From an uncultured Methanoregulaceae archaeon (lineage in GTDB: Archaea; Halobacteriota; Methanomicrobia; Methanomicrobiales; Methanospirillaceae), in assembly GCA_963737635.1 (NCBI GenBank), contig CAVTTL010000001.1, forward strand, positions 448,001-512,000: 64,000 nt of DNA. The letters are read 5' to 3'. The position numbers were made by a program, and so were the translations under genes. A model generated the notes under the pieces. That model ran no database searches. It was not told the DNA's origin and saw only the letters and a program-made list of their open reading frames with translations. Shown here in pieces: positions 25,863 through 35,111 of the stretch; position 1 is the first letter of the stretch; the number at the start of each line of letters is the position of its first letter.

Positions 25863-25934
25863 AAATACTCTCATTGCTATTGTGTAAGCACTATCGAAAC
25901 GGTTATTCCCTACGGCACTCCACATGTGGTCGTT

Positions 25935-27119
25935 ATGGTGTCCCGTGAACTTATTTCAGGAGTATACTGGGTCGGGGCGTTTGATTTTGACCGGCGGATC
26001 TTTGATGAACTGATCCCGCTGCCGGAAGGTACGAGTTACAACTCGTATCTCGTACAGGGCAGCGAAAAAACCGCCCTTATCGATACGGTCGATCCTTCTA
26101 AGGAATATGACCTCATCTCGAACCTTGTAAAACTGGGTATCGAAACTATCGATTATATCGTGATCAATCACGCCGAGCAGGATCACTCCGGTGCCCTCCC
26201 GATGATCCTGGAGTTCTACCCGGATGCGAAGGTAGTTACGAATGCAAAGTGCCGGGATCTTCTTGTCGCCTTGCTGCATATCCCCCAGGAACGCTTCTCG
26301 GTGATCGCGGATGGGGATACCCTGTCACTCGGGAACCGGACCTTCCGGTTTTTCCTCACACCCTGGACACACTGGCCTGAAACCCAGATCACGTTCCTTG
26401 AGGAGGATAAGATCCTCTTTCCCTGCGATCTCTTCGGTTTCCACGCCGCTACGAGCGAACTGTTCATACATGACGAAGCCTGGGCCTACCGGTCAGCGAA
26501 GCGGTATTATGCCGAGATCATGATGCCGTTTCACGGCAGTATCAAAGGCTATGTTGAGAAAGTCAGGGAGCTCTCCCCGGTGATGATCGCACCAAGCCAC
26601 GGACCGGTCAACAGGAACCCGCAGTTCATTCTTGACGCGTATGCTGACTGGGTATCGGATACGGTCAAAAACGAGGTGGTTATCCCCTATGTCTCGATGC
26701 ACGGCAGCACCGCAAAGATGGTGGATCACCTCACCGGAGCGCTTATCGCCCGGGGGATTACGGTCCGGCCATTTAACCTTACCCGGACTGATATCGGCGA
26801 ACTGGCGCTCGCTTTGGTGGACGCGGCAACGATCGTGATCGCTACACCCACCGTCCTTTTTGGTCCCCACCCGTCGGTCGTATCGGCGACGTACCTCGCA
26901 AACGCCTTGCGGCCCAAGACCCGGTTTGCCTCCGTGATATGCTCTTATGGATGGGGAGGCAAGACCACCGATACGATCACAAAGATGCTCGACCATGTCA
27001 AAGTCGAACTCATCCCCCCGGTGATGGTTCTTGGTGAACCCGGCGAAGCGACCATGCAGGACCTTGACCGGCTGGCAGATGAAATCTTAAAGAAGCATAA
27101 AGAAATTAACATCGTATAA
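25935..27119 (+). CDS. fprA: Flavodiiron protein (FprA family)
   Basis: GTSYNSY, HAEQDH, HWPE, DLFG, PSHG di-iron ligands and flavodoxin domain SMHGST...SYGWGG. Confidence 0.95.
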   Translation: MVSRELISGVYWVGAFDFDRRIFDELIPLPEGTSYNSYLVQGSEKTALIDTVDPSKEYDLISNLVKLGIETIDYIVINHAEQDHSGALPMILEFYPDAKVVTNAKCRDLLVALLHIPQERFSVIADGDTLSLGNRTFRFFLTPWTHWPETQITFLEEDKILFPCDLFGFHAATSELFIHDEAWAYRSAKRYYAEIMMPFHGSIKGYVEKVRELSPVMIAPSHGPVNRNPQFILDAYADWVSDTVKNEVVIPYVSMHGSTAKMVDHLTGALIARGITVRPFNLTRTDIGELALALVDAATIVIATPTVLFGPHPSVVSATYLANALRPKTRFASVICSYGWGGKTTDTITKMLDHVKVELIPPVMVLGEPGEATMQDLDRLADEILKKHKEINIV

Positions 27120-27136: not shown

Positions 27137-27517
27137 ATGACGAAACTCTTCGAGGTTTATAAGTGCGAAGTCTGCGGAAACATCGTGATGGTTATCGGCG
27201 CATCCGGCGGCACGACATCGTGCTGCGGGAAACCGATGGTTCTCCAGCAGGAAAAGACTGCCGACCAAGGTAAGGAGAAACATGTACCCGTCATCGAAAA
27301 GACCCCGGGGGGAATCATCGTCAAGGTCGGCTCCATTCCCCACCCGATGGAAGCGGCACATTACATCCAGTGGATAGAGGTCCGTTCCGGCGACAATACG
27401 TATTTCAAGTGGCTCCGGCCCGGGGAAAAGCCCGAAGCCGAGTTCCCGATAAACGATACCAATGTAAAAGCACGAGAATACTGTAGTGTCCACGGTCTCT
27501 GGACCAATAAAATATAA
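27137..27517 (+). CDS. dfx: Desulfoferrodoxin (2Fe superoxide reductase)
   Basis: YKCEVCGN...CCGKPM, EKHVP, HPMEAAHYI, CSVHGLW. Confidence 0.96.
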   Translation: MTKLFEVYKCEVCGNIVMVIGASGGTTSCCGKPMVLQQEKTADQGKEKHVPVIEKTPGGIIVKVGSIPHPMEAAHYIQWIEVRSGDNTYFKWLRPGEKPEAEFPINDTNVKAREYCSVHGLWTNKI

Positions 27518-27544: not shown

Positions 27545-27650
27545 CTCAGGTGTACCGTTCCTGTATTCCGTAAAAATGTGAGCCGAAAAACAAATCCACT
27601 TTTGTTAACATCAGGAGATCTAATATAAACTGCAGGCTCATAGTACGGTA

Positions 27651-28463
27651 ATGAAACAGATCGCCCTGTACGGGAAAGGTGGTATCGGAAAGTCCACAAC
27701 GTCGGCAAACCTCTCCGCCGCCCTCTCTCTTGCAGGGTACGATATCCTCCAGATAGGATGCGACCCCAAGCGCGACAGCACCCGGATGCTAATGCAGGGA
27801 AAGCTCATCCCCACGGTGATGGACCTAGTTCGCGAGCGGGGTACCGCATCGGTGACACCTGCTGACGTTGTCTACTCCGGCTTTAACGGCGTTCGCTGTG
27901 TTGAAGCCGGGGGACCTGAACCCGGTGTCGGCTGTGCCGGCAGGGGGATCATAGCCACGTTCCAGCTGCTGGAAAAGTTTGGAACGCTCACGGGCGACGT
28001 GATTGTCTACGACGTACTAGGCGACGTGGTCTGCGGCGGATTTGCCATGCCGATGCGGGAGGGCTATGCGCAGGAAGTTTACCTTGTTACCTCCGGGGAA
28101 TTGATGTCTCTTTACGCAGCCAATAACATCTGCAAAGCGATCCAGCGCCTGAGCGCCCGGCCAAAGAGCAGATGCCGGCTTGCCGGTGTTATCTGTAACG
28201 CCAAGAACCAGCCACGGGAAGAGGATCTCGTGGCCGAATTTGCCCGCCGGGTCAACAGCCATCTTATCCAGTTCATTCCCCGGGATCGCTCGGTGCAGCT
28301 TGCCGAGCTGAACCGCAGAACGGTGATCGAGTACGAGCCTGGCTCAGCTCAAGCCAAGGTATACCGCGACCTTGCCGCCCGGGTTATGGAGAATACCCGA
28401 CTTACCATTCCTACCCCTCTTGAGATTGATGAACTTGAGGCCCTTGCCATCGAATTTATGTAG
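27651..28463 (+). CDS. NifH-like Fe protein (nitrogenase-like reductase)
   Basis: [45 protein letters not shown]. Confidence 0.95.
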
Positions 28464-29469
28464 GTCTGCTGGCTGTACTCTCACGGGCGCGTTGTCTGTC
28501 ACAACCCACGTCCGTGACGCAATCACGGTCGTGCACGGGCCTGCAGGATGCACGCATCACAATTTTTCCCTCCTGCATGCCACGAGCCTCGACAACGATC
28601 GTATTACTCTCCCCCCCCTCGTTTCGACCGGGCTCTCAGAGATCGAGGTGATCTTCGGCGGCGAGGGTACCCTCGACCGGACACTTGATCAGGTAATCGC
28701 ACGCGAACCCGGGGCTGTTTTTGTTCTCTCAACCTGTATCGTGGAGACCATCGGCGACGACGTCGGGATGATCTGCGACACAAAGACTGGGATACCGGTC
28801 ATCGTGGTACCTACCGCAGGTTTTCTTGGCGGGTCATTCCAGACCGGCGTTAATAATGCACTTGTCTCCCTTGCTGGGATGGCAGAGCCGGCAAAGGGGA
28901 ACGGGCTGGTGAACATTATCGGCGAGAAGAACCTTGAATATGAGGTCGACGAAAACTTCGCCGAGGTCTCCCGGCTGCTTGCTCTGCTTGGCCTCTCCGT
29001 AAATATCCGGTTCATCCATGACCTCACGACCGGGCAGATCGCTTCACTGGGGGCTGCCCGGCTCAATATACTCCGCGATCCTTCGCTTATACCCGTTGGG
29101 GAATACCTTAAAGAGCGTTTCAAAACGCCCTATATCCCTGCCTACCCGGTGGGGATCTCCGGCACCATCCCCTTCCTCGAATCTGTTGCCGGTGCGTGCG
29201 GTATCGACCCCTGCCATGCAGTGGATGATGAACGTGCGCTCCACCAGGAGATATTCGAAGATTTTGCAGATATTGCCGGATCAGGGATTTCTTTTTCATC
29301 GTCCCACCCCGATCCGGAAGGGAACCGGGTGGCGCAGGATATAGCACTGGCCCTCAGGCTCGATATCACCCCTTCAGGGCGCCCGATGCCGGCACCAGTG
29401 ACACTGCCAATTGGCAGCGCCGGCGTGCGGCGGATGCTCCACCGGTGGAGGAGAGTTCTCCATGCTTGA
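28429..29469 (+). CDS. Short nitrogenase component-1-like subunit (NifD/E-like)
   Basis: [43 protein letters not shown]. Confidence 0.9.
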
Positions 29470-30593
29470 CTGCAGGACACCGCTGTGGCCCTGTGCTATG
29501 ACTGGTGCTGCGGCATGCCTTGCCGGATTTAAAGGGATTACAGTCGTCATCCACGGTTCCAGCGGATGCTATTATTACCCGGCAACCCTTCTTCATGCCC
29601 CCCTGCACGGCACCTTCATTCTTGAAAACGAAGTGGTATTCGGGTCAGGAGATCGGCTTCGCAAAGTAATCGGTGAGTCTGTCCGGCAAAGGAAACAGAA
29701 TAGCGGTCATCACTACCTGCGTCCCGTCACTCCTTGGCGAAGATATAAAATCAATGCTCGACGAAAACGACGTCATTTTAGTCGACAGCCCGGGATTTGC
29801 CGGGGATCTGGAGACCGGGTACCAGGCGGCACTTGCTTCGCTTTCCCCGGCTGCAGACCCGGGCGGCCCGGCGTGAATATCGACGGTGTCTCCCTTTCGG
29901 ACCCGTTTTACGAGGGGAACCTGGAGGAAATTTCCCGGATCCTGCACCGCGCCGGGATTCCTGTAGGGACGGTTTTTTGCCGAGACTTATCCGCAATGGC
30001 GGAACACGCATCGCCACTGACCATCGGTACTAATGAGGATTTTGGATCCGGTGTCGGAAAATATGTTGGTGGAACCTTGGGGATACCTGTTCTCCGCGCG
30101 ACCTGCGAAAGGCTTTCTGCAGTCTACGAAGATGCAGATATGAACCCTGTTTTTACCGAACTTGATCTCGAGGAGGAACGGGTGATCCACATCTGTGACA
30201 AGTTCCTCCGCCGCTACGATCCTCCCGGAGTTGCAGTCTTTGCCGGTGCTTCGTACGCGTTCTTTGCTGCCGATACCCTGAAGCGCTATCTTGATGCCCA
30301 GATTCTTGTTGTTGGCACACGTAACGACCCTCCTGAGCAACCCGGTACACGGTACAGAGTGGAAAAAATTATGGGACTGGAGGAGATTGATACCACGATC
30401 AGGAAAATGAACCCGGATCTCGTGATAGGATCATCGTTCGAACGATCGTTGTGTGTCGATCGGGCCTTTGTGGGGATAATCCCGCCGCTTCGCGGAAGGG
30501 TAAGACTTGCACACACCCCGCTTGCCGGGTACTAGCGGCACACTCCATTTTATCGAAGAATCCTTGAACGCCTGCATGGACAAAAAGGATTAG
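29462..30593 (+). CDS. Short nitrogenase component-1-like subunit (NifK/N-like; three frameshifts)
   Basis: PCAMTGA, IHGSSGC, ENEVVFG; TTCVPSLLGEDI in the alternate frame (29673..29876); PDLVIGSSFE; the natural end ...HFIEESLNACMDKKD* is at 30593. Confidence 0.85.
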
Positions 30594-30675
30594 GTACTGG
30601 ATAGGGACGACTTTCCTCATTTACCTTTCACTTTCACTCCGCGCACGGCTCCGGGTTATATACCGGTCGACAAAG

Positions 30676-31125
30676 ATGCACTATCACGACAGAAGGTGGT
30701 CGTGTATGATGCAAAAGGCAGGTTACATCCAGAGAACAGGATGTAGGGCAATTGACCGTGACGGTGGAATCCACGAAGTTGTGGAACTGCATGTCATGGG
30801 CGCCCGGTATGCAATCCGACTAGGGGATCTGGCAAAAGGAATCTCAGGACGACAGGTCGTTGTTCAAGTGGAGGCACTCGTACGTGAGTGGAACTACTAC
30901 CTGGGCACAACCTGCGGGCTGGCACAGGTGTCAGCCTCCGGCAAGGCCCTCAATATTGAACTCTTCGAGGCAGGGAATTTTACCGTGTCGCTCCTTGCCC
31001 TCAGATCGGTCGTCTACGGGCGGGAACGTCTTGCCAAGATCGCAAGGATACCCAAACAGCCGGCTTCACCTGCCTGGAAAGACCGCAGGCTTACCGGCCA
31101 GCGGCAGCTCGGCGCACTGGTCTGA
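30676..31125 (+). CDS. Hypothetical protein
   Basis: 149-aa ORF with TTATATA upstream and a T-rich tract downstream. Confidence 0.65.
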   Translation: MHYHDRRWSCMMQKAGYIQRTGCRAIDRDGGIHEVVELHVMGARYAIRLGDLAKGISGRQVVVQVEALVREWNYYLGTTCGLAQVSASGKALNIELFEAGNFTVSLLALRSVVYGRERLAKIARIPKQPASPAWKDRRLTGQRQLGALV

Positions 31126-33380: not shown

Positions 33381-33859
33381 ACTGGCACCTCCTTTAAGGG
33401 CTTCGCGTAGTTTACCAGACCCCCGGCATCGATAATACCCTGCATGAAGGGGGGGACCGGTTCAATGGCAAGTTTTTTGCCGTCGACCTCCACATAGCCC
33501 TTTTTGACGCTGATCGTGACCTTTGCCCCGTCAGGGATTTTATCTGTTTCATGGCAGACCACCGGGAGTACCCCGACGTTAACGGCATTCCGGAAGAAAA
33601 TGCGGGCAAACGATTGGGCCAAGACTACCTGTACTCCTCCGCCAAGGAGCGCCAGCGGCGCGTGTTCGCGCGAAGAGCCGCACCCGAAATTCTTTCCGGC
33701 AACGACCACGTCGCCTTCTTTTACTTTCTTTGCAAACTCATCCCGGGTACCCTCAAAGGCATGCTTTGCCAGTTCCTTTGGATCGTAAATGGTCAGGAAA
33801 CGGCCCGGTATGATCGCGTCAGTATCGATATTGTCCCCAAATTTCCATGCTCTCATCAT
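33359..33859 (-). CDS. leuD: 3-isopropylmalate dehydratase small subunit
   Basis: [29 protein letters not shown]. Confidence 0.85.
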
Positions 33860-35111
33860 TACACCTCACGCGGATCCGTGATCTCGCCTTTTATTGCGCT
33901 TGCAGCTGCCGTTGTCGCCGAAGAGAGATAGACCGAGGCTTCGGTGCTGCCCTGGCGGCCCTTAAAGTTCCGGTTTGATGTCGAGAGACAGACCTCCCCG
34001 GGTGCAAGCAGGCCAAATGATCCCCCCATGCACGGCCCGCAGCACGGCGCCTCGACAAGAGCTCCCGCCTTTACGAATCGTTCTATGAGTCCCTTTTCGA
34101 GAGCTTTGAGATATTCGTCGCGAGATGCAGGGATGATAATTACCCGGGTTTTCGGGTTGAACTTCTTTTTACCCAGCACTTTTGCAGCCTCGGCAAGATC
34201 TTCATACCGCCCGTTTGTGCATGAGCCGATGAAAACCTGATCGATATGGGTTCCTTCGACCTTACTTACCGGCACCCCCTGATCAACATTATGGGGAATA
34301 GCGACCTGAGGCTCAAGGTCAGTGACATCGTACAGTTCTCTTTTCCGCAAACGTTGCATCGTCATCGCTTGCAAGATCGAAGGGTTTCATTTTCCGGCGG
34401 CCTTTCATGTATTCCCAGGTAATTTTGTCGGGCGGGACGATACCGGCTTTTGCGCCCATTTCGATCGCCATATTGCAACAGGTCATCCGGCAGGCCATGT
34501 CCAGTTTTGCGATGGTCTTACCCGTAAATTCGATTGCCTGGTAGGTCAGCTCCGTCTGCTCCGATATCGGTTGCAATTGCGAGGATCAGGTCCTTTGCCC
34601 CGACCCTTTCCGGGAACTTACCCGACACCGCAACCCGGAGGGTCTCCGGCACCTTGAAGTAGAGGGCACCGAACTTCATGGCAAAACCCATATCGGTCGA
34701 ACCAATGCCGGTCGCAAACGCCCCTACGGCCCCGTACATGCAGGTATGGGAATCGGCACCTACTACGATCTCACCTGGCGCTGCCCGGCCTTTCTCAAGG
34801 ACAACCTGGTGGCAGACACCTTCATTGATATCGTAATTATGGATGCCCTGCTCTGCCGCAAAGGTGCGCATGAATACGTGATTTTTTGCCGCTTCAAGGG
34901 AATCTGCAGGTATCTGGTGATCGAAGAGCATGATGACACGGTGCGGATCGAAAACCTGTTCTCCGTCCATCTCGTAGAACTTCTGGATGGCAAGAGGGCC
35001 GGTAATATCGTGGATCATTACCCCGTCAAGAGGAGTCATGACCACTTCGCCTGCCCTGATATCGCTGCCGCATTTCCGTGAGAAGATCTTCTCGACGATT
35101 GTTGATCCCAT
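33859..35111 (-). CDS. leuC: 3-isopropylmalate dehydratase large subunit (two frameshifts)
   Basis: [31 protein letters not shown] across ORFs 34518..35111, 34319..34576 and 33859..34374. Confidence 0.85.

Follow-up and report, generated by a model that had tools for sequence, protein, structure and literature searches.

Among the nitrogenase-like (NFL) enzymes, a 2026 review (PMC13474568) assigns Nfa to Group IV-A, CfbCD to Group IV-B, Mar to Group IV-C and Isr to Group IV-F; the portions of the review available to us list Groups IV-D, IV-E and VI as uncharacterised and count the functions of the uncharacterised Group IV systems among the greatest challenges of the field. A survey by Dos Santos et al. 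in 2012 (PMC3464626) described, in its accessible parts, adjacent NifE/N-like pairs from Proteobacteria, Archaea, Firmicutes and Fibrobacteres that keep three plus three P-cluster cysteines and have neither Cys275 nor His442, and also nifH-nifE fusions and a Methanocorpusculum pair credited with two plus one cysteines. Here we analyse a locus of three overlapping genes, a NifH-like gene (H) followed by two short component-1 genes (D and K), in a stretch of 64,000 nucleotides (nt) from an uncultured Methanoregulaceae archaeon (GenBank assembly GCA_963737635.1, contig CAVTTL010000001.1, positions 448,001 to 512,000), referred to as the window. On the evidence set out below we consider it probable, with some reserve, that the locus consists of cfbC followed by two genes that encode the subunits of a heteromeric component 1 of the Group IV NFL type, uncharacterised and specific to Methanomicrobiales, for which CfbC serves as a common donor.

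The D/K pair answers to the same description as the NifE/N-like pairs in the accessible parts of PMC3464626 (an adjacent D/E-like and K/N-like gene with 3 + 3 cysteines), and the general class, with 3 + 3 cysteines, no ligands of the iron-molybdenum cofactor (FeMo-co) and Archaea included, has been known since 2012. In contrast to the present case, those parts of the paper single out no Methanomicrobiales clade, no link to cfbC and no short D subunit; the Methanocorpusculum pair with 2 + 1 cysteines, compared with D/K by description only, may be a different pair or may reflect a different alignment. No description of a Methanomicrobiales-wide cfbC-D-K operon was found in the open-access literature, subscription journals and supplements lying outside the scope of the search, and the accessible portions of PMC13753814, PMC12176620, PMC3087415, PMC8399215, PMC9012536 and 10.1101/2025.02.17.634645 do not mention the triad. 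Methanomicrobiales rank among the main producers of methane in peat, rice soils, sediments and digesters, and a predicted nitrogenase-like enzyme whose genes nearly all genomes of the order carry, in one operon with that for the reductase of the F430 pathway, constitutes a well-defined 'known unknown'.

The Fe protein gene and the layout of the locus

H (27651-28463, forward strand) encodes 270 amino acids (aa) and matches the Pfam family Fer4_NifH over model positions 1-268 of 271 (E = 3.3e-108). It scores 413.8 bits on the NCBIfam model F430_CfbC (NF033200; cut-off 402) and 382.8 bits on the nifH model, which is below that model's cut-off of 394.35; its cluster cysteines, C95 and C128, are kept in all 35 orthologues. 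The genome (2.46 Mb in 4 contigs, 90% complete, with the window at G000:C1:448001-512000) holds two strong NifH-family genes, namely H and the nifH of the nif cluster at C1:1021937, together with a separate true CfbD (C1:2043770-2044816) that scores 509.6 bits against a cut-off of 268.4 (TIGR03282) and is flanked by cfbE-like and cfbB-like genes, with no cfbC in that cluster. Since H is the sole NifH outside the nif cluster and passes the CfbC cut-off, it is, as judged from these scores, the genome's only cfbC candidate and the organism's CfbC, shared with the separate CfbD.

The same arrangement recurs throughout the order, which was sampled as 46 genomes (this one and 45 others that are at least 95% complete). 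A CfbC-type gene is present at E <= 1e-40 in all 46 and exceeds the CfbC cut-off in 44; the best CfbC match lies directly upstream of a D-like gene in every genome; and each genome has one CfbD above the cut-off, which in none of them is a neighbour of the triad. The D-like gene begins where the CfbC gene ends or shortly thereafter, with a gap of ~380 nt in one genome (G035), and no other NifH-family gene (E <= 1e-40) is found in 30 of the 46 genomes.

A preliminary description of this DNA, made from the letters alone, had treated H as the dedicated Fe protein of a self-contained HDK enzyme, with cfbC to be sought elsewhere in the genome. The three genes do overlap and look like one unit, as such an enzyme would have it. 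Nevertheless, H passes the CfbC cut-off, no other cfbC candidate occurs in this assembly (90% complete, 4 contigs) or in 30 of the 46 near-complete genomes, and a genome of another genus (G234, discussed below) keeps H without D or K; we regard a self-contained enzyme as very improbable. This part of the description fails on the very finding that it had named beforehand as fatal to it, that H is the only cfbC: of the separate cfbC and cfbD whose presence it proposed to check, a CfbD exists, whereas a second cfbC does not, only two NifH-family genes being present. The H gene should be named cfbC, and nifH accompanied by nifD/K-like genes in these archaea should not be equated with diazotrophy. 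The counting of Methanospirillum hungatei JF-1 among genomes with a stand-alone nifH, in the accessible part of PMC8597730, fits D and K not having been annotated as nifDK.

D lies within the open reading frame (ORF) 28372-29469 on the forward strand, and a start at ATG 28429 gives a product of 346 aa (28429-29469), as long as most of the database homologues, which carry the name Methanoregula. K (29462-30593, forward strand) begins at ATG 29462 and encodes 376 aa in the corrected frame (see below); in the frame of its congeners it stops at TAG 30591-30593, which is the end coordinate that the preliminary description had implied. D overlaps H by 35 nt and K overlaps the stop of D by 8 nt, confirming that description's three overlapping genes, and the H-D-K unit is probably co-translated. 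Against the Pfam family Oxidored_nitro (PF00148), D aligns only to model positions 1-252 of 399, K of this assembly aligns as three segments that lie in different frames, and K of a congener, which is intact, aligns to positions 1-398 of 399. The triad accounts for the sole PF00142 and PF00148 matches inside the window's range; nifHDKEN (C1:1021937-1029327) and nifB (C1:1374028) lie far outside it, so that nifEN and nifB are indeed not nearby.

A TATA-like box, TAATATAAA (27621-27629, forward strand), was read from the sequence ~22 nt 5' of the cfbC ATG. Its position after an oligo-T run 3' of the desulfoferrodoxin gene suggests that the triad may have its own promoter and a leaderless or short-leader mRNA. 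The NrpR operator GGAA-N6-TTCC, reported earlier as missing from the promoter, has no match across the whole 64-kb window, where 1.98 would be expected by chance.

The two component-1 subunits

Each subunit carries three N-terminal cysteines at the positions of the P-cluster ligands, as had been noted from the letters, and all six are invariant. D C16, C41 and C103 are kept in all 35 orthologues and align to the GC, HGPxGC and (S/T)TC motifs of NifD and NifE; K C11, C36 and C86, together with a further N-terminal cysteine, C4, are kept in 28/28 and 22/22 sequences. K C86 sits in an alternative-frame ORF (29673-29876), consistent with the earlier placement of the third K cysteine in a frameshifted segment. 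An additional D cysteine, C116, is kept in all 35 loci, but in a wider alignment of 23 sequences 4 have Ser or Ala instead.

Equivalents of the FeMo-co ligands Cys275 and His442 are missing from D. In a HMMER alignment to a Clostridium NifD and a NifEN, the cysteine that anchors FeMo-co or the L-cluster falls on D217 or R216 of the motif LNILRDPS, the same motif that the preliminary description had read in place of Cys275, and no cysteine occupies the cofactor-anchoring position in any of the 23 aligned D-like sequences. D also ends before any His442 equivalent, as described: its Pfam match stops at model position 252 and the protein itself at residue 346.

Scores on models of the characterised families are uniformly low. 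D reaches 111.7 bits on the nifE model (cut-off 505.1), 87.7 bits or less on models of the NifD/VnfD/AnfD type (cut-offs 486 or more), 68.1 bits on BchB (490), 36.3 bits on BchN (420) and 44.3 bits on BchZ (529); the intact K reaches 37.5 bits on nifK (427.3) and 27.5 bits on nifN (326.8). Among structures in the PDB, the best match of D is the NifEN fusion 9i0g (92.2 bits); against the Mar chains of 9d9u, D reaches 59.1 and 45.4 bits and K reaches 32 bits. An alternative nitrogenase was ruled out as an identity for the pair by the missing ligands and the hidden Markov model (HMM) scores.

The nearest relatives were sought by a filter-free HMMER search of 1.84 billion representatives. At 230 bits or more, the D family comprises ~20 clusters with lengths of 335-365 aa, of which the named ones are Methanomicrobiales; the next matches, at 169 bits or less, are unnamed 'nitrogenase component 1' proteins from Limnochordia/Bacillota, Nitrospinae, Chloroflexi and Tectomicrobia, and farther out come NifH-NifE-like fusions (e.g. 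of Methanosarcina) and true NifE and NifEN. In some Methanomicrobiales such fusions, a kind that includes the next-nearest relatives of D, occur besides the cfbC-D-K triad, with a NifH-like domain (G287:C1:2246047-2246781 and G278:C1:570919-571713) within an open frame of 740-768 aa.

A tree (IQ-TREE quick search, LG+G4) was calculated from 76 rows, made up of 15 of the 35 D-like and 10 of the 28 K-like sequences, 46 rows from 45 of 150 representative matches (one NifEN fusion being split over two rows), and five proteins of the genome under study, namely NifD, NifK, the N-terminal part of NifE, NifN and CfbD. The D-like sequences form one clade, with one unnamed sequence as sister (support of 97 in the Shimodaira-Hasegawa approximate likelihood-ratio test, SH-aLRT); this clade is placed among unlabelled NFL sequences and is separated from that of NifD and NifE (SH-aLRT 100); the K-like sequences likewise form one clade (100) apart from NifK and NifN (100), and CfbD is a very long branch. 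The phylogeny proposed in the preliminary description thus sets D and K apart from NifDKEN and CfbD, in a tree that, unlike the one proposed, contained no BchNB/YZ or MarDK references. As far as the HMM cut-offs, the PDB scores and the tree (the last with neither Mar nor Bch) can tell, D and K lie outside CfbD, NifDKEN, DPOR/COR and Mar, in agreement with the earlier claim that they are distinct from the characterised members. As in Group IV-type NFL enzymes broadly defined, PF00148 proteins occur here with a NifH-like gene, outside the nitrogenase clades and with no His442.

An AlphaFold2 model of D (predicted local distance difference test, pLDDT, 86.8; predicted template modelling score, pTM, 0.84) contains two complete Rossmann-type domains, followed by a third part that is reduced to ~100 residues and ends in a long helix bearing a conserved C-terminal RRMLHRWRR motif. 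A Foldseek comparison of this model with the PDB returned NifD, BchB, NifE, NifK and MarD only, at query-normalised scores (TMq) of 0.61-0.72 and with no preferred relative, and the ESM Atlas returned solely the protein's own kind of cluster. The D+K complex, predicted with two [4Fe-4S] clusters included, reached an interface score (ipSAE) of 0.79, as opposed to 0.00 for the best of 3 controls; a mark of that level is attained by 116 of 157 solved complexes and by 2 of 215 mismatched pairs. Between runs, at least 85% of contacts coincide, the partner pLDDT is at least 89, and the confident interface (D 12-16, 37-48 and 102-104; K 2-11, 32-36 and 86-87) takes in all seven cysteines as well as D-His43/44. 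A six-cysteine interface, for which the preliminary description had proposed to examine a heterotetramer model, is seen in a predicted heterodimer; because solved NifDK, NifEN and BchNB complexes exist, this pass may only mirror likeness to them, and it is to be read as such likeness rather than as proof of binding.

Comparison with the characterised systems brings out a distinctive combination. CfbCD resembles the present system in its Fe protein, H being the putative CfbC of the organism, and in that D and K are also short (~350-380 aa), have no M-cluster ligands and have their sole cluster predicted at the subunit interface; CfbD, however, is a homodimer with 2 + 2 cysteines, whereas D and K are two different subunits with 3 + 3 (+ 1) cysteines, which score 37.4 bits (D) and 37.6 bits (intact congener K) on the CfbD model as against 509.6 bits for the true CfbD of the same genome. 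NifEN, whose NifE subunit and 9i0g fusion are the best named matches of D, is a heterotetramer served by the same Fe protein as the catalytic component, just as D/K would share CfbC. NifEN carries a [4Fe-4S] cluster on 3 + 1 cysteines and a cofactor site; D/K, in contrast, has 3 + 3 cysteines and no cofactor cysteine, and D lies far under the NifE cut-off and outside the NifD/NifE clade. MarHDK (Group IV-C) and the DPOR BchLNB (Group V) are three-component NFL enzymes with ATP-driven electron delivery to an interface cluster, of which Mar keeps the six P-cluster cysteines and DPOR uses that cluster to reduce its substrate directly. Unlike D/K, Mar retains an L-type cofactor site in proteins of 466-519 aa, and the DPOR cluster is held by three cysteines and an Asp, whereas K has a cysteine at all three positions. 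With two different short component-1 subunits, 3 + 3 cysteines and no FeMo-co ligands, the earlier reading of D and K as parts of a distinct heteromeric NFL stands.

The pair is widespread within the order. With D as query, orthologue-level matches were found in 39 of 41 relatives, and its absence from the other two, G008 (91% complete, with no NifH-family gene at all) and G013 (70% complete), most likely reflects assembly gaps. Across the phylum, a D orthologue (E <= 1e-33) occurs in 36 of 37 genomes of the order's six families and in none of 213 genomes of other families, assignment to Methanomicrobiales being taken from record titles. With an alignment of K as query, 310 stretches that encode a relative were found in GTDB species genomes, the best 80 of which are labelled Methanoregula, Methanoregulaceae, Methanoculleus, Methanomicrobiaceae, Methanomicrobiales or, at the level of the phylum, 'Methanobacteriota archaeon'; two distinct component-1 genes, one D-like and one K-like, are present in all 46 genomes of the order sample. 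D and K are a conserved pair, specific to Methanomicrobiales and under purifying selection: ratios of nonsynonymous to synonymous substitution (dN/dS; NG86 method, against congener G003) are 0.12 for D and 0.09 for K, and 0.06 for H.

Integrity of the K gene

The preliminary description had reported frameshifts in K and had asked whether they are real. They are present in this assembly, as three single-base indels rather than two: alignment of K with three congeners shows one base too many at or near 29678, the loss of a G after 29860 and a surplus G at 30527. All three sites were checked over 27600-30650 on Logan contigs of four runs from four studies (X1, X2, X4 and X7), of which at least two or three studies are independent, as the best-matching run may stem from the source sample. 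X1, X2 and X4 lack one letter at 29678, where X7 has no coverage, and have a G inserted after 29860; at 30527 all four lack one letter. Those contigs otherwise differ from the window at 2 positions in ~2.2 kb (identity 99% or more).

The same assembly also splits cfbB, in the cfbE-cfbD-cfbB cluster (C1:2042270-2046316), and nifE (C1:1026748-1027933) into two frames each, and dN/dS is 0.12 over the 60 codons between the first two K indels. The three frameshifts are assembly errors and the K gene is intact. Decay of K, and hence of the enzyme, in this organism would have in its favour the three frame breaks within 1.1 kb; because all three are missing from near-identical contigs of other studies, because dN/dS is low in K as a whole and inside the shifted stretch, and because further genes of the assembly (cfbB, nifE and the aconitase-family gene below) are broken in the same manner, we find it hardly credible. 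A programmed frameshift or other recoding in K was ruled out by the plain open frame in the congeners and by the read-derived contigs.

The two residual differences between the contigs and the window are C for G at 29956 (X1, X2 and X4) and A for G at 30351 (X1, X2, X4 and X7), which are either further assembly errors or strain-private differences; X2 alone has one further one-base gap at 30105. Elsewhere in the window, a gene for a LeuC/HacA-type large subunit of the aconitase family (33859-35111, reverse strand) is split into an ORF for the N-terminal 197 aa (34518-35111) and one for the C-terminal 171 aa (33859-34374), separated by ~140 nt in another frame, which looks like more indel errors of this assembly. 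The completeness estimate of 90% may itself be lowered by assembly frameshifts. In a congener that is 56% complete, a D-like region (G017:C32:53191-54230) is interrupted by several in-frame stops (TGA and TAA) and gives partial matches that overlap; it may be a broken copy or the product of poor assembly.

Possible function and genomic context

In the working that we propose, a CfbC homodimer would bind ATP and pass single low-potential electrons from its [4Fe-4S] cluster to an iron-sulfur (Fe-S) cluster at the D/K interface, and the same CfbC would also serve the separate homomeric CfbD in F430 synthesis. The six invariant cysteines, of which each subunit contributes three, would hold the interface cluster, which could be of the P type ([8Fe-7S]) or of the [4Fe-4S] type with ligands to spare; K-Cys4 and D-His43/44 lie nearby and are possible extra ligands. 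Four ligands would be enough, and the conservation of six favours a P-type or otherwise unusual cluster. Because D offers neither M- or L-cluster ligands nor a second cofactor site, and because its third domain is shortened, the interface cluster may reduce the substrate directly, as in DPOR and CfbD. Electron donation by CfbC, the type of cluster, direct reduction and the nature of the substrate are all points that we infer. The locus poses a clear question, whether a six- or seven-cysteine interface cluster works without a second cofactor, and as handles it offers an Fe protein that is already known, two subunits whose small size suits them to expression, and a lineage with natural loss of the pair.

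That lineage is represented by G234, a genome of another genus of the same family that is 99% complete. Its locus (L138 = G234:C13:26422-30213) reads trkH-cfbC-X, where X corresponds to the ORF downstream of K in the window (30676-31125, forward strand, 149 aa); ~170 nt separate cfbC from X, with neither D nor K in between. No D-like match was found anywhere in G234 at E <= 1e-33 with this query, K not having been searched separately. One genus appears from this gene order to have lost D/K cleanly while keeping cfbC, a natural knockout. Because cfbC is kept there without the pair, D/K is accessory to F430 synthesis and not needed for it.

Several observations weigh against a CfbC-driven reductase formed by D and K. 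The case for donation by CfbC consists of the operon linkage and the lack of any other NifH in 30 of the 46 genomes. No RNA run appeared among the sequencing runs listed for this DNA. D and K are not tightly coupled everywhere, for in family f5 (4 of 4 loci) K is encoded on the opposite strand at a distance of ~3 kb. Among named proteins D most resembles NifE, which is a scaffold rather than a reductase, and the tree contained no Mar, Isr, Nfa, Bch or Group VI references. The clean loss in G234 shows that the pair is not essential and leaves room for a minor or conditional role.

As a substrate of D/K, a tetrapyrrole linked to F430 is the most attractive guess, and a tentative one. D/K could act inside the F430 pathway as an order-specific tailoring, salvage or repair reductase, re-reducing oxidised F430 or making a variant and using CfbC as the reductase of the pathway, a role that we consider doubtful. 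It would accord with the operon link between D/K and cfbC in all 46 genomes, with the reduction of tetrapyrroles by both characterised NFL enzymes that have no M-cluster, DPOR/COR and CfbCD (accessible parts of PMC13474568), with a NikR gene and a CbiM-type Ni/Co uptake gene beside K in one locus of family f6 (L042:378-1888), and with O2-detoxifying genes, FprA-like and desulfoferrodoxin, upstream in this window. Yet G234 keeps cfbC and has lost D/K, and the nickel genes and the O2 genes each occur in one locus only, trkH being the usual gene upstream. To our knowledge no F430 variant specific to Methanomicrobiales has been reported, which also counts against such a role. A fuller version, which we think unlikely, has CfbC as an Fe protein with two clients, driving CfbD and a second, Methanomicrobiales-specific enzyme that would act on F430 or a close relative (in repair of the oxidised cofactor or formation of an order-specific variant) and whose seven-cysteine interface cluster would reduce the tetrapyrrole directly, with no M-type cofactor.

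D/K might otherwise be a NifEN-like scaffold or carrier for a complex Fe-S cluster, such as the NifB product destined for MCR activation or nitrogenase, on which CfbC would act as NifH does on NifEN. The best named matches of D, NifE and the NifEN fusion, would suit a scaffold, as would the presence of nifB in the genome, the essentiality of NifB in methanogens and the L-type clusters of the MCR activation complex (10.1101/2023.10.20.563283 and PMC12176620, in their accessible parts). However, no cofactor-anchoring cysteine occurs in the 23 aligned D sequences and the third domain is shortened; none of the 213 other genomes of the phylum yielded the pair, and many of these belong to methanogens in need of the same clusters; and it is present in the 30 of 46 genomes without a nif-type NifH. 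In three loci of family f4, a gene with the PF02579 domain (NifX/NafY-type, cofactor-binding) is convergent to K (L041:1243-1815, L045:1181-1714 and L054:4977-5585), as a scaffold might lead one to expect, but it lies on the opposite strand and in one family only. We hold a scaffold role to be improbable, and less likely than reduction of an F430-linked tetrapyrrole because the anchoring cysteine is absent and other methanogens do not have the pair.

The gene neighbourhoods of 17 loci revealed no consistent functional partner of the predicted reductase. Upstream of cfbC, trkH is the usual gene in the congeners and in most families; in this window it is replaced by genes of O2 and superoxide detoxification, for an FprA-like flavodiiron protein (25926-27119, forward strand) and, between that gene and cfbC, for desulfoferrodoxin (27137-27517, forward strand). 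Downstream, X has no Pfam match at 1e-6 and no NCBIfam match at E <= 1, and its homologue in G234 has an NCBIfam match at chance level only (E = 0.13). X follows K in 80 of 118 loci, nearly all of them from Methanoregula or Methanoregulaceae.

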